DNA of 64,000 nucleotides from Candidatus Eiseniibacteriota bacterium (lineage in GTDB: Bacteria; Eisenbacteria; RBG-16-71-46; CAZAMP01): assembly GCA_965224245.1 (NCBI GenBank), contig OZ245046.1, forward strand, positions 2,432,001 through 2,496,000. Reading direction: 5' to 3'. Shown here one piece after another: positions 32,296-36,381 of the stretch. Under the pieces are notes generated by a model, which worked only from the letters and a program-made list of their open reading frames with translations, was not told the origin of the DNA and did no database searches. The translations under genes and the position numbers were made by a program. Position 1 is the stretch's first letter. Every line of letters starts with the position of its first letter.

Positions 32296-34071
32296 ATGCT
32301 CGACCGCCCCAGGCCGCCTCGTCCACCGCGGACACGCGGCGCGTGGATCGGCCTCTCGCTCGGCGCCCTCCTGGCGCTGGCAGGGCCGGCGTCACGACCC
32401 GCGGCGCTCGCCGAGACCCTCACTCTCACCCCCGAGTGGTCGGTCGACACCGGCGGATGAATCTTCGCCAACCCCGAGGTCTCGGGGGATCGGGTCTACG
32501 TCGGATCGTGCAACGGGCGGTTCCAGTGCCGCGACCTCACCGACGGCTCGATCCGGTGGAGCTACGACGTCAGCGCCGACGGCGAGGCCCGGAGCTTCCA
32601 CGGGAACATGCTGCTCCAGAAGAACGTGATCCTCGTCGGCACCGACCCCGAGGACGGCTACCTGTACGCGTTCGACCCGCAGACGGGCGAGGTACGCTGG
32701 AAATGGTGGGCCGCTCCCGGGATCGGTACCGACCTGGTCGCGGGGCCCGATCTCGTCTACGCGGTGACGCTGGACGACGTGCTCGTGTGCCTCGACCTGG
32801 AGACCGGCGCCGAGCAGTGGCGCAGCGTCCCCGAGACCACCGTCAGCTCCATGCTCACGCGCGGATCCACCCCGGCGCTCGAGGACGAGACGATCGTCTT
32901 CGCCGGCGTGGCGGGCCGCGTCCAGGCGCTGGACGCGCGGACCGGCGCCGCCGGGTGGTCCACCGAGGTCGGGGGGCCGGTGACCACGTCGGTGGCCCTC
33001 CATCGCTCACGAGCGCTCGTCGGAACCGAGGCCGGCGTGCTCCACGCGCTCGATCGCACCACCGGGACCGTCCTCCGTTCGGTGTCGCTGCCCGGCTCGC
33101 CGCGCGGCGAGATCGTCACGACCGAGGCGGGGCTGGTGGTGCTCGTCGGCGAGGACGGCTGGCGAGCACGGCTGGTCGCGCTGGACGACGATCTGACCGT
33201 CGCGTGGGAGAGTGTCGCCACCGACGGCTCGCTCTGGACGAGCGCCCGCCCGACGCGAGCGGGCCGGTGGATCCTGGTCGGCACGGCCAGCGGCGAGCTG
33301 GCCGCGATCTCGTCCGACACCGGCGAGACCGACTGGACACTCCCGATCGAGCCCATGCGCGACTGGACCGGGGACGGCATCCGGAGCGCCTCCATCGTCG
33401 CCGGCCGCCTCATCGTGGGCACGATCGCCGGGCGACTCACGTCGTATCGACTCCCCCCGGAGATCCTGGCCGGGGCCGGGCCCGTTCGGCGGCCCCGCCC
33501 GCGTCCGGTGGCCATGGCGCCCACGTGAGCCGGCTGACCCGGCGAAGGGTCGCCGCTTCGGGGAAGCGGCCTGGATCACGACTGGACGGTCTCGCTGCGG
33601 TACGTGGATACCGGAACCGATCGGGCTCGCTGGCGTTCCACGATCAACCGGCGCGTGCTGCCGACGCTCTCGCTCGGGATCGAGTTCAACCCGGTCGTCG
33701 GCGAGGTCGGTCCGCTGGTCACGTGGTTCTTCGTCGGTGAGGGGCATGGCACACCCGCCGTCTTCGTCGGCACCAGCTCCGATCGGATCGGAACCGACGA
33801 GGGCGAGCAGAGCTACTACGCGACGGCGACCAAGCGGCTGCCGTGGTGGCCGGTCTCGGCCTACGTGACCGCCAACTACTCCGAGGCGGACGAGTCGTTC
33901 AACGTGCCCTTCGGGGGCACGATCAACCTCACCGAGACGCTGTCGATGCGTCCGATGTACGATGGCGAGCGCACGCATCTGATGGCCACGGCGGCCACCG
34001 AGCGGTTCGCGGTGTCGCTGATCGCAGTCTGGCTGGAGCGGGTCGGCGTCTCGGTCTCCACGGGCTTCTGA
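32296..34071 (+). CDS. Putative triple-selenocysteine protein (591 aa): signal peptide, PQQ-repeat beta-propeller (Sec55), UxxU linker (Sec411, Sec414), C-terminal beta-barrel-like domain
   Basis: Track ORFs 31906..32460, 32608..33528 and 33604..34071 are in one frame, separated only by TGA at 32458, 33526 and 33535. Intervening codons are open and protein-like. A SECIS-like hairpin follows each TGA. Confidence 0.75.
32472..32487 (+). promoter_or_regulatory. Bacterial SECIS-like hairpin for TGA 32458-32460
   Basis: TGA + 11 nt + CCCCGA-GGTC-TCGGGG. Confidence 0.75.
33540..33570 (+). promoter_or_regulatory. Two overlapping SECIS-like hairpins for the UxxU codons
   Basis: CGGCGA-AGGG-TCGCCG (33540-33555) starts 11 nt after TGA1; GCCGCTTC-GGG-GAAGCGGC (33552-33570) starts 14 nt after TGA2. 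Confidence 0.65.
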
Positions 34072-34097
34072 AGGTCTCGACCACGAGGATGGCGTCA

Positions 34098-34769
34098 ATG
34101 CGCAAGCTCGTCCGTCACGCGATCGCGATCGTCGCGGTCGCCGCCTGCACCGCCGTGTTCGCCGATCCCGCCGAGCACCCGGACGAGGCGGTCTGCCGCA
34201 CGTGCGAGATCCGTGGCGGCGGGCACGGTCTCGAGAAGGTCGCCGCACACCGGGAGTACGAGGGCACGTTCTACTACTTCTGTGACCCGGGCTGTGCGGA
34301 CGCGTTCGATGCGTTCCCCGAAGCCTACGCCCACCAGCCCCTCCCGAGGCCGGCCCCCGACGTCACGTTCACCTCGCTCGACGGCTCGTCCGTTCCCCCG
34401 AGCGCGCTTCGCGGGCAGCACGTGCTCGTGGACTTCTGGGCCACGTGGTGCAAGCCCTGCGTGACGAGCATCCCCAAGCTCGTCGAGATCCAGGAAGAGT
34501 TCGGTGAGCGGGGCTTGCGCGTGGTCGGGGTCTCGATCGACGAGATCGAGGCCGATCGCGTCCGTGCGTTCGTCGACGAGAAGAACATGGCGTACACCGT
34601 GGCGCTGGACGGCGGCGACGAGCCGGCCTGGCTGGCCTATCGGGTGGCCGCGATTCCCGCGGCCTTCCTCGTCGATCCCGACGGTCGCATCGTGGCCGAG
34701 TGGAAGGGGGCGGTCGATCCCTCGCGAATCCGGGCCGAGATCGCCGACCGGCTCGGGGGGACGGACTAG
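34098..34769 (+). CDS. Exported YHS-domain + TlpA-type thiol-disulfide oxidoreductase fusion
   Basis: Signal peptide; VCRTC...YEGTFYYFCDPGCADAF YHS/TRASH domain; VDFWATWCKPC, IPAAFLVD. Confidence 0.88.
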   Translation: MRKLVRHAIAIVAVAACTAVFADPAEHPDEAVCRTCEIRGGGHGLEKVAAHREYEGTFYYFCDPGCADAFDAFPEAYAHQPLPRPAPDVTFTSLDGSSVPPSALRGQHVLVDFWATWCKPCVTSIPKLVEIQEEFGERGLRVVGVSIDEIEADRVRAFVDEKNMAYTVALDGGDEPAWLAYRVAAIPAAFLVDPDGRIVAEWKGAVDPSRIRAEIADRLGGTD

Positions 34770-35004
34770 CTCGACCGGGCCCCGGTAGGCCGCCACCGGG
34801 GCGCCCCCCGGCGCTCCCGCGAGGCTCGAGGTCGTCCGGGATCCCCGCAGCGTCCCCAAACCGCTCATCGGTAAGCATTTGCCTCAAAGCTGAGGATCGT
34901 TATATTCTGAACCGACGCCGAGCGGCGATGGGGGTCGTGTGGGCGGTACGGTCCGCACTCCGGGCGACGCGCGTTTGCCGCTGGAGACGCCGCAGGAGAG
35001 CCCG

Positions 35005-35640
35005 ATGTCCGCCGCCGCCGCTGATCTACCTCCATGGATCCACTCGCTGCCGGTTGCGATCTGGGTGTCCGACGAGCACATGCGCCTGTCGTACGTCAAC
35101 GAGGCCGCAGAGCGTCTCTTCGAGATCACCGGCGACGTCGTGGGCTGCCACTGCTTCGAGATCGTGCGCGGCCGCGACGCAAGCGGAGCTCCGTTCTGTC
35201 GCCCCGACTGTCCGGCGGCGGCCGCGATTCGTGACGGGTGCGCGAACGACGGCTTCGATCTCAAGATCGGTGACGGGGTCGGATCCTGGACGCGCGTGTT
35301 CATCGCTCCGGTCGCGGGTCGCTCGTCGCGGCCGATCATTCACTTCGCGGTCCCGATGCAGCGCGAGCACTGCGCCGAGGACTTCGTCGAGCGCGTCGCG
35401 GAGCGGACCCGTGCCGCGTCCCAGGCTCGACTCGACGCGCTCACCGACCGCGAGAAGGAGATCCTGGCACTTCTGGCGCGCGACAAGACGGCACGAGTGA
35501 TCGCCGACGAGCTGGCCATCAGCTATTCCACCGTTCGCAATCACATCCAGCACGTGCTGACGAAGATGGACGCGCACTCGACCCTGGAAGCGGTCGCGTG
35601 CTGGGTGCTCGCGACCGCCGTCGTGTCCGGCGAGGAGTGA
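35005..35640 (+). CDS. PAS + LuxR-type HTH transcriptional regulator (Cys-rich PAS)
   Basis: YVNEAAERLF PAS; GCHCF...FCRPDCP; LTDREKEIL...IADELAISYSTVRNHI. Confidence 0.88.
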   Translation: MSAAAADLPPWIHSLPVAIWVSDEHMRLSYVNEAAERLFEITGDVVGCHCFEIVRGRDASGAPFCRPDCPAAAAIRDGCANDGFDLKIGDGVGSWTRVFIAPVAGRSSRPIIHFAVPMQREHCAEDFVERVAERTRAASQARLDALTDREKEILALLARDKTARVIADELAISYSTVRNHIQHVLTKMDAHSTLEAVACWVLATAVVSGEE

Positions 35641-35769: not shown

Positions 35770-36381
35770 ATGTCGCCGACCGGGACGTTCGAGATCGCCC
35801 CCAGCGGACGGGCGAGGTGTCGCGGGTGCGGCCGTGCAATCGCCAAGGGCGAGATCCGCTTCGGCGAGCGAATGCCCAATCCCTTCGGTGACGGCGAGAT
35901 GACCCTCTGGTTCCATCCACGATGCGCCGCGTACAAGCGCCCCGAGCCGTTCCTGGACGCCCTGTCCTCGGATACGACTCACTCCGGTGAGCTGTCCGGA
36001 CGCGAGTCCCTGATCGACGCCGCGCGGTGCGGCGCCGCGCATCGCCGGCTACCCAGGCTGAGCGGCGCCGAGCGCGCGCCGAGCGGACGCGCTCGCTGCC
36101 GGTCCTGCCGAACGCTCATCGACAAGCAAAGCTGGCGGTTCTCACTGGTGTACTACGAAGAGGGTCGCTTCGAGCCCGCCGGCTTCATCCACGCGGGCTG
36201 CGCACCGGACTACTTCGAGACGACCGTCGTGACGGAGAGCGCGACGCCTCTCGTGGAGGGCGGCGAGCTTCTCGTGGAGCGCGCCGCACACTTCTCGCAG
36301 CTGGACGACGCGGATCGGTTGGCGCTCGCCGAGGCCGTGGCCGGCGGAGGTCCGTCCACGTCCCCGGTGGCGCTCCCGTGA
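35770..36381 (+). CDS. Tandem PARP-type zinc-finger protein
   Basis: Two copies of ExAPSGRARCxxC...HxxC. Confidence 0.8.
   Translation: MSPTGTFEIAPSGRARCRGCGRAIAKGEIRFGERMPNPFGDGEMTLWFHPRCAAYKRPEPFLDALSSDTTHSGELSGRESLIDAARCGAAHRRLPRLSGAERAPSGRARCRSCRTLIDKQSWRFSLVYYEEGRFEPAGFIHAGCAPDYFETTVVTESATPLVEGGELLVERAAHFSQLDDADRLALAEAVAGGGPSTSPVALP

Follow-up and report, generated by a model that had tools for sequence, protein, structure and literature searches.

A fused gene in an Eisenbacteria genome that probably carries three selenocysteine codons and joins a BamB-like propeller to an outer-membrane barrel

The gene described here occupies positions 32296-34071, on the plus strand, of a 64,000-nt stretch of DNA from Candidatus Eiseniibacteriota bacterium (contig OZ245046.1 of assembly GCA_965224245.1). 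We call this whole stretch the window, and all coordinates are positions within it. Read straight through three in-frame TGA codons, the gene would encode an exported protein in which a beta-propeller is followed by an outer-membrane beta-barrel, and comparison with homologs supports reading all three codons (UGA55, UGA411, and UGA414) as selenocysteine (Sec, written U). The propeller and the barrel belong to two putative selenoprotein families that are otherwise separate genes; judged by sequence, the window gene is the only fusion of the two that we found. We consider it quite probable that three Sec codons reside in this one fused gene.

With TGA translated as U, the frame yields 591 residues and a stop codon. 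The in-frame TGAs lie at 32458-32460 (U55), 33526-33528 (U411), and 33535-33537 (U414), and the terminal TGA at 34069-34071. The first-pass annotation of this DNA had proposed a single shared frame with TGA at codons 55, 411, and 414, and our re-translation of 32296-34071 agrees. A shared frame alone is weak evidence, because frames free of TAA and TAG are common at the GC content of the region (~70%); the same frame at one relative's locus (L021) stays open far past the gene end, as do many non-coding frames. The observation rises above chance because of comparative evidence, namely, conserved TGAs and covarying hairpins. The parts of the gene and the gene that follows it are:

32296..32412, plus strand: start codon and predicted signal peptide (residues 1-39), with an Arg-rich n-region, a hydrophobic segment AWIGLSLGALLALAG, and A-L-A followed by E40, as judged from the translation
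32425..33453, plus strand: eight-bladed BamB-like beta-propeller domain, from Pfam PQQ_2, an AlphaFold model, and Foldseek
32458..32460, plus strand: UGA codon 55, read as selenocysteine; the TGA is conserved at this column across homologs
32472..32487, plus strand: selenocysteine insertion sequence (SECIS)-like hairpin for UGA55, CCCCGA / loop GGTC / TCGGGG, 11 nt past the UGA, with covariation
32509..32511, plus strand: Cys72 codon (GSCNG), candidate resolving partner of Sec55, invariant in alignments of 6 and 52 sequences
33454..33525, plus strand: linker rich in Pro and Arg (PPEILAGAGPVRRPRPRPVAMAPT); its homolog in stand-alone barrel proteins is the mature N-terminus ('..RPRPxxSAPT' segments after their signal peptides)
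33526..33537, plus strand: U-A-G-U motif, UGA411 and UGA414 read as two selenocysteines; both TGAs are conserved, with C-x-x-C in distant homologs
33553..33569, plus strand: SECIS-like hairpin for both UGAs, CCGCTTC / loop GGG / GAAGCGG, 15 nt past UGA414 and 24 nt past UGA411
33583..34068, plus strand: 12-stranded outer-membrane beta-barrel domain with C-terminal Phe, from an AlphaFold model and structure matches
34069..34071, plus strand: true stop codon TGA, where homology ends
34089..34769, plus strand: partner gene, a probable lipoprotein with a YHS/TRASH-type metal-binding domain and a TlpA/ResA-like thioredoxin fold (WCKPC), from Pfam

To place the two neighboring UGAs, we searched 60 relatives in six frames with the read-through protein. 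Nine genomes matched residues ~351-591 at 45-60% identity, each match with two TGAs inside it. One of these genomes (G053) is marked as unpublished and is not the sole basis of any claim. The barrel homolog in all nine is a small separate gene that opens with its own Met and hydrophobic signal-like segment, continues through 20-35 Pro/Arg-rich residues and APT-U-SG-U-PGEGAPLRGSG, and ends after ~175 residues in GF. The first-pass annotation had assigned the motif to a Pro-rich linker; this placement does not hold, because the UxxU of stand-alone barrel genes comes after a signal peptide that belongs to the same gene and is therefore not a linker feature. A scan with one genome per species returned 78 barrel loci, 76 of which reach the motif, while the other two begin past it. 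These loci come from metagenome-assembled genomes labeled Eisenbacteria, Thermoanaerobaculia/Acidobacteriota, Poribacteria, Latescibacterota, Gemmatimonadota, Krumholzibacteriia, KSB1, Calditrichota, Methylomirabilota, 'Cytophagia', and 'Alphaproteobacteria', about ten phyla in all. All 76 have TGA at both motif positions. Of the two retrieval patterns, one specified Cys codons and one targeted a region far from the motif, so this sample is not biased towards TGA. Within the phylum of the window, the family occurs in 44 of 206 genomes, and two TGAs are present in 45/45 matches that cover the motif. The gene end behaves differently: its stop codon in 75 complete homologous loci is TGA (44), TAG (17), or TAA (14), with no such alternation at the motif. 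These organisms thus use TGA as an ordinary stop codon, and only at the motif is it invariant.

Forms with other residues at the motif appeared among more distant proteins. An exhaustive profile search gave 231 barrel-family representatives, and at the motif of the 14 that we examined, six read PT-C-AG-C-AGEAR (P0134, P0139, P0157, P0201, P0136, and P0153), one C..W (P0131), and one W..W (P0228); the remaining six lacked the motif. In sequence terms, then, the UxxU site has a Sec/Cys pairing of the classical kind: TGA in close homologs and C-x-x-C in six distant ones, as the first-pass annotation had expected of codons 411 and 414 if they encode Sec. Trp or unrelated residues, which it had named as the outcome that would speak for nonsense mutations, were not the pattern; where TGA is replaced, the residue is Cys and never TGG, and the Trp of database entries is mistranslated TGA. 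Three database proteins (P0004, P0079, and P0228) have W at both motif sites, and P0079 matches a locus (L099) whose DNA reads TGA TGA, which identifies the W as a gene-caller artifact. Public protein sets gave 597 matches; among the best 120 of the 597, almost all were open reading frames (ORFs) of 155-172 residues that begin past the TGAs, for example, P0002. The distant member P0131 reads P-A-C-V-G-W-PGEG and may be a C-x-x-U variant with its TGA translated as W. Two genomes have two barrel-family matches each on one contig (G089:C144 and G092:C18); both G092 matches have two TGAs, and the second G089 match is a C-terminal part only, with one TAG. Several other contigs of runs X1, X2, X4, and X5 match only window positions 33520-33575, that is, the UxxU motif and its hairpin, with 5-8 differences, so the family is present in other community members of the same metagenomes.

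The SECIS-like hairpin downstream of the UxxU motif (33553-33569) is new relative to the first-pass annotation. We tested it on an ungapped alignment of 77 sequences against 500 shuffles. Of 616 cells in this 7-8 bp helix, 93.8% pair, and seven of the eight pairs show compensatory change; none of the 500 shuffles reached the observed values, and sliding the partner strand lowered pairing to 36-66%. Pair 39-51 alternates between GC (50), GU (16), and AU (7), and pair 42-48 between CG (61) and UA (12). These covarying columns are synonymous third positions of Pro/Ser and Leu/Gly codons, hence the constraint acts on the RNA. RNAalifold returned the same helix, and the window's own hairpin carries a compensated U-A pair. 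The loops are G-rich, being GGG, GUG, or GUU for the UxxU hairpin and GGUC for the U55 hairpin. Four loci (L050, L053, L080, and L117) read PGEGAPVGG instead of PGEGAPLRG and have a different hairpin ~4 nt further upstream. Between the UxxU motif and the conserved PGEG..LRGSG segment the window holds no start codon (the first is GTG at 33604), and this stretch is therefore translatable only by read-through.

The propeller tells a parallel story at codon 55. We searched the 206 phylum genomes with the propeller part, and the five best homologs (G155, G045, G162, G120, and G168; 32-39% identity) contain exactly one TGA each, in all five at the U55 column, within the context G-U-[VI]F..P.V.GD..Y.GSC.G. 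A metagenome scan, whose alignment begins past the U55 column and whose patterns are thus blind to that codon, added 74 loci: 72 have TGA at the U55 column, one (L198) has TGC, and one (L199) is an unrelated PQQ-like repeat. The first-pass annotation had proposed that Cys or TGA at this codon in homologs would favor Sec, and both were found, TGA in the five genomic and 72 of the 74 metagenome loci and TGC in L198. Stand-alone propeller homologs, like the window gene, start with Met and then a hydrophobic segment. The family surfaced only by six-frame DNA search; a protein-database search with the propeller returned the window's own 306-aa fragment (P0272) and generic BamB-like proteins only.

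The CCCCGA-GGTC-TCGGGG element that had been noticed 11 nt after TGA55 is confirmed at 32472-32487, and it covaries across homologs. On 79 sequences (65 distinct) and again with 500 shuffles, 92.6% of 390 cells pair and 0/500 shuffles reached the covariation score; pair 24-39 occurs as CG (21), GC (20), GU (7), AU (2), UA (2), and UG (2). At the Cys-form locus L198, the 6-bp stem has two mismatches. Comparative sequence data indicate that the TGA55 hairpin is real, and it is visible by comparison only.

In the 52-sequence propeller alignment U55, Cys72, and Phe101-His102 are invariant, and Cys72 is also found in 6/6 sequences of a smaller alignment. The first-pass annotation had suggested that Sec55 pairs with the cysteine of the GSC segment; the co-invariance of Cys72 with U55 (52/52) fits this suggestion, and the pairing itself is what we infer from it. 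In the propeller model, the loop that leads into the first strand of blade 1 contains U55, and the loop that follows the second strand contains Cys72; given propeller topology, both residues would lie on the same face. The arrangement, with the Cys 17 residues after G-U, suggests that one face of the modeled propeller has a Sec/Cys redox site.

The genome is equipped to decode such codons. Its assembly (6.9 Mb, 27 contigs, 97% complete) contains selA (515.8 bits), selB (324 bits), selD (378.4 bits), and tRNA-Sec (71.9 bits), all four above curated cut-offs, so that the complete set for which the first-pass annotation had advised looking is present. The selD match (L010, G000:C1:4218184-4219107) itself has one in-frame TGA, and SelD is probably a selenoprotein in this genome. 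In a sample of 61 genomes of the class, selA is found in 59, including all 10 barrel carriers among them; the two genomes that lack it are 86% and 81% complete. Taken at the level of DNA comparison, the Sec reading is supported for UGA55, UGA411, and UGA414 alike.

How the two families came to share one frame can be read in part from the joint. The 24 codons upstream of UGA411 (..RRPRPRPVAMAPT) align with the mature N-termini of small barrel proteins, and the stop, spacer, start, and signal peptide of the once-separate barrel gene are missing. The genome has one copy of each family, both within the window gene. Elsewhere, the propeller is absent from barrel loci (0/76) and a continuation into the UxxU motif is absent from propeller loci (0/73). 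The first-pass annotation had held that propeller and barrel always occurring as separate genes would speak against one protein; they are separate at every other locus, whereas in the window itself they are fused. Logan contigs from two runs of one sample (X1 record 1 and X2 record 7) cover 32296-34071 with 0 differences. The TGAs and the fusion joint are therefore not a quirk of one assembly, since two run-level assemblies agree base for base; the sample behind both contigs may be the window's own source, and their agreement is not independent support.

Several observations weigh against a single three-Sec protein. The fusion itself was found at no other locus. The window barrel departs from near-invariant residues at GSPEG, which reads GTDEG, and at NYSEWD, which reads NYSEAD, and these departures could reflect relaxed constraint. 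In single-sequence folding the TGA55 hairpin is no stabler than shuffles (z = 0.05); the UxxU region gives z = -1.92, and folding energy alone lends the hairpins no support. Nothing in Rfam matched 32300-34100 at E <= 10, the SECIS models included, a negative of little weight because Rfam has few bacterial SECIS models. No RNA run among those searched covers the gene stretch, and X4 and X5 contain short pieces from relatives only. The evidence for the three Sec residues is DNA-level and comparative. Three Sec insertions in one bacterial polypeptide are expected to be inefficient, and any fraction of translation that ended at UGA411 would yield a free propeller.

The last point shades into a different account of the locus, in which there are two products: the Sec55 propeller ends at TGA 33526 as an ordinary stop, and the barrel part, its own start and signal peptide lost, is either a remnant in decay or a product of occasional read-through in trace amounts. 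Stand-alone propellers do often end in TGA soon past the last blade (L121, L123, and many of L127-L200), the fusion has no second example among 76 barrel and 73 propeller loci, the window barrel differs at a few near-invariant positions, and long open frames come cheaply at 70% GC. We nevertheless regard this account as decidedly unlikely. The propeller frame includes, just before TGA 33526, 24 codons with homology to the barrel's mature N-terminus; the SECIS-like hairpin beyond is intact, down to its compensated pair; and the barrel keeps all invariant residues, is 62% identical to its best homolog, and is free of frameshifts. It is also the sole barrel copy in a 97%-complete genome, with the YHS-TlpA partner gene retained beside it.

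The way public gene calls fragment the region (P0272 with 306 aa, and homologous ORFs of 155-172 aa) might raise the suspicion of a pseudogene whose TGAs arose by nonsense mutation or from errors in sequencing or assembly. The same columns are TGA in 76/76, 45/45, and 72/74 distant genomes or metagenome contigs, however, conserved residues flank each TGA on both sides, and the two run-level assemblies are base-identical, which leaves this explanation very improbable. A changed genetic code, with TGA read as Trp or Gly, would account for the W at both motif positions of P0004, P0079, and P0228, and we give it slightly less credence still: TGA, TAG, and TAA interchange at the gene end (44/17/14) and neighboring genes in the window end in TGA or TAG; non-TGA homologs have Cys and never TGG; the W form P0079 matches TGA DNA (L099); and the full Sec machinery is present. 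We therefore rejected both the code-change and the pseudogene explanations on the conserved TGAs, the alternation of stops at the gene end, and the Cys forms.

We modeled the two halves of the protein with AlphaFold, the C-terminal part with 86 sequences and the propeller with 52. The barrel model (pLDDT 88.1, pTM 0.81) has 12 strands, so that the domain described as beta-barrel-like in the first-pass annotation emerges as a confident 12-stranded outer-membrane barrel fold. VIA-align Z scores are highest for the COG4313 channel (4rl8; 16.4), FapF (5o65; 16.4), and KdgM (16.1), followed by autotransporter translocators (13.6-14.8), a designed 12-strand barrel (13.2), and PcoB (8.8); between 151 and 170 residues align to 12-stranded barrels at 2.5-3.0 A, with 7-15% identity. 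A C-terminal Phe is present in 68/75 complete barrel homologs. Pfam gave no match in the C-terminal 155 aa of the window protein, and no family at E <= 0.1 or 1 for the window C-terminal part, P0002, P0134, or P0139. As a lead only, ESM Atlas annotates the natural Cys homolog P0134 as 'putative outer membrane protein with beta-barrel domain' (score 0.97).

The propeller model (pLDDT 90.1, pTM 0.89) has 32 strands in eight blades. Pfam PQQ_2 covers residues ~53-373 (E 6.4e-40), and BamB chains rank highest in Foldseek (TMq 0.76-0.79, 18-21% identity). The earlier description as a PQQ-type propeller stands as far as the PQQ_2 repeats go; the domain is BamB-like and not a PQQ enzyme. A PQQ-dependent dehydrogenase was rejected because TIGR03075 scores 60.6 bits against a cut-off of 480.05 and the PF01011 match spans residues 152-218 only of the protein, against a 595-position model. 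A BamB ortholog was likewise rejected (TIGR03300, 109.9 against 285.2 bits; NF008351, 90.1 against 423; no lipobox Cys).

The most consistent neighbor of the barrel gene is the gene that follows it in the window. Its product (34089-34769) matches AhpC-TSA (1.3e-21, 77.2 bits) and Redoxin (1.3e-19, 70.9 bits), both above cut-offs, and YHS (1.5e-07) in Pfam. Against the NCBIfam equivalogs it reaches 90.9 of 170 bits for ResA and 69.8 of 230 for TlpA, and because neither cut-off is attained we call it TlpA-like and not a named ortholog. Directly downstream of the barrel gene, in the same orientation, 53/76 barrel loci have a homologous thioredoxin part and 52/76 a YHS part, counts that include six loci with <700 nt of flank. 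YHS domains are also fused in frame upstream of the UxxU in four loci (L108, L109, L113, and L114), and three copies occur on the Cys forms P0136 and P0153. Clustering of flank ORFs from the 76 loci revealed no neighbor besides YHS-TlpA in more than seven loci (hydantoinase B, PhyH, a TonB receptor, a methyltransferase, and others).

Other neighbors in the window (a ParA-like ATPase, a PAS-LuxR regulator, a zf-PARP protein, and a PPTase) give no functional hint. Directly past the TlpA-like gene, 34939-35640 on the plus strand encodes a PAS and LuxR-type helix-turn-helix regulator with a Cys-rich N-terminal part, which may control the module. At 35770-36381, also on the plus strand, an ORF has two stretches matching the PARP/DNA-ligase zinc finger (zf-PARP, E 2.8e-21), a domain that, to our knowledge, is not common in bacteria.

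We propose, tentatively, that the barrel and its partner have a metal or redox function, centered on an outer-membrane site for redox chemistry or a soft metal; the sequence evidence makes this a possibility that we rate somewhat below an even chance. The assignment is drawn from neighborhood and domain co-occurrence, and it is weakened by the finding of no conserved metal-resistance or cytochrome-assembly genes near barrel loci. In the scheme that we envisage, one gene would give a 591-residue exported selenoprotein, with all three UGAs decoded via SelA, SelB, SelD, and tRNA-Sec; one downstream hairpin would serve UGA55, and one would be shared by UGA411 and UGA414. The signal peptide would carry the protein across the inner membrane and the barrel would insert into the outer membrane, placing the UxxU segment at the periplasmic mouth of the pore or within it. 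There, the neighboring YHS-TlpA-like thioredoxin could keep the diselenide reduced, and the reduced selenolates could bind or relay a thiophilic, copper-like metal or relay electrons. In this genome, the Sec-propeller would be tethered to the barrel.

Two bolder variants of this scheme seem to us rather unlikely. The UxxU might lie inside the barrel lumen as a diselenide/selenolate gate or metal filter that is reset by YHS-TlpA, or the barrel might export N-terminal cargo in the manner of an autotransporter. In the latter case, most species would have no cargo, some would export YHS domains, and the window protein would export the Sec-propeller, which would make it a cell-surface selenoenzyme. 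Autotransporters and FapF share an architecture of signal peptide, variable N-terminal cargo, linker, and C-terminal barrel, and the order of parts in the window resembles it. In type Va autotransporters, a helical linker threads the pore and the passenger lies on the cell surface. By DSSP, the barrel model has no helix in residues 10-47, in the segment that precedes the barrel; alignments to autotransporters do begin before the first strand, at model residues 29-32.

Comparison with known barrels and propellers brings out what is shared and what is not. FapF, the COG4313 channel, the KdgM/NanC porins, and the type Va translocators (NalP, AIDA-I, EstA, Hbp, and BrkA) have the 12-stranded fold and C-terminal Phe in common with the window barrel, which nevertheless differs from them in its 7-15% identity and lack of a Pfam match; we know of none among them with Sec or a CxxC plug. 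BamB (TIGR03300 / PF13360) resembles the window propeller in its eight blades, size, and PQQ_2 match. BamB is a lipoprotein whose signal contains a lipobox Cys, whereas the window protein has no Cys in residues 1-54 and carries the invariant U, C, and F-H, which we do not know from BamB. For the partner gene, the closest parallel is TlpA with ScoI and CoxB in Bradyrhizobium, a system of copper-site maturation in which the TlpA-type thioredoxin of the periplasm is encoded beside a Cys-pair protein and is presumed to reduce it for copper binding. Here, the presumed client would be a diselenide that belongs to an outer-membrane barrel, the thioredoxin has a YHS domain of its own, and no genes for cytochrome oxidase were found near the window gene or the barrel loci.

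Neither family matches a known selenoprotein in the sources that we consulted. NCBIfam release 20 gave no match for the barrel proteins (E <= 0.1) and, for the propeller, sub-threshold BamB and PQQ models only. In the parts consulted of two reviews (PMC13188914, 2026; PMC9312934, 2022), the UxxU families are Prx-like, 'metal-binding (putative mercuric reductase)', and FmdB only, there is one outer-membrane barrel selenoprotein (GSU2204, MtrB/PioB type), and the terms propeller, PQQ, and porin have no entry. The metal-binding UxxU family, as far as those parts describe it, is similar in that U-x-x-U replaces a metal-binding or redox C-x-x-C and Cys forms exist; it is listed as a metal-binding protein, whereas the motif here is an N-terminal extension of an outer-membrane barrel. 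The GSU2204 family (NF041027) sets a precedent for a Sec-carrying outer-membrane beta-barrel; from the same parts, it has one Sec, contains CXXCH, and is of the MtrB/PioB type, whereas the barrel here is small (~160 residues, 12 strands), has a UxxU extension, and has no NCBIfam match. The main text of the BSepDB paper (PMC13326102), a study that lists 111 families, contains none of the terms looked for. Full-text literature searches found no described propeller, BamB-like, or outer-membrane-barrel selenoprotein of these families. Both families are thus apparently undescribed, and supplementary family lists could change that.

Both families are common: the barrel occurs in 44/206 genomes of the phylum and about ten other phyla, and the propeller at 72 TGA-bearing metagenome loci. 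Because public gene calls truncate at TGA or write Trp, the envelope selenoproteome of these bacteria is under-counted. That every close member found has Sec at both motif positions points to a chemistry for which Cys is no substitute at this site. The triple-Sec fusion offers a test case for multi-Sec decoding in bacteria, and the barrel/YHS-TlpA pair is a module of two genes on which outer-membrane redox or metal handling that depends on selenium can be tested. The gate/filter or cargo-export reading, if true, would give selenocysteine a role that is new to the bacterial envelope.

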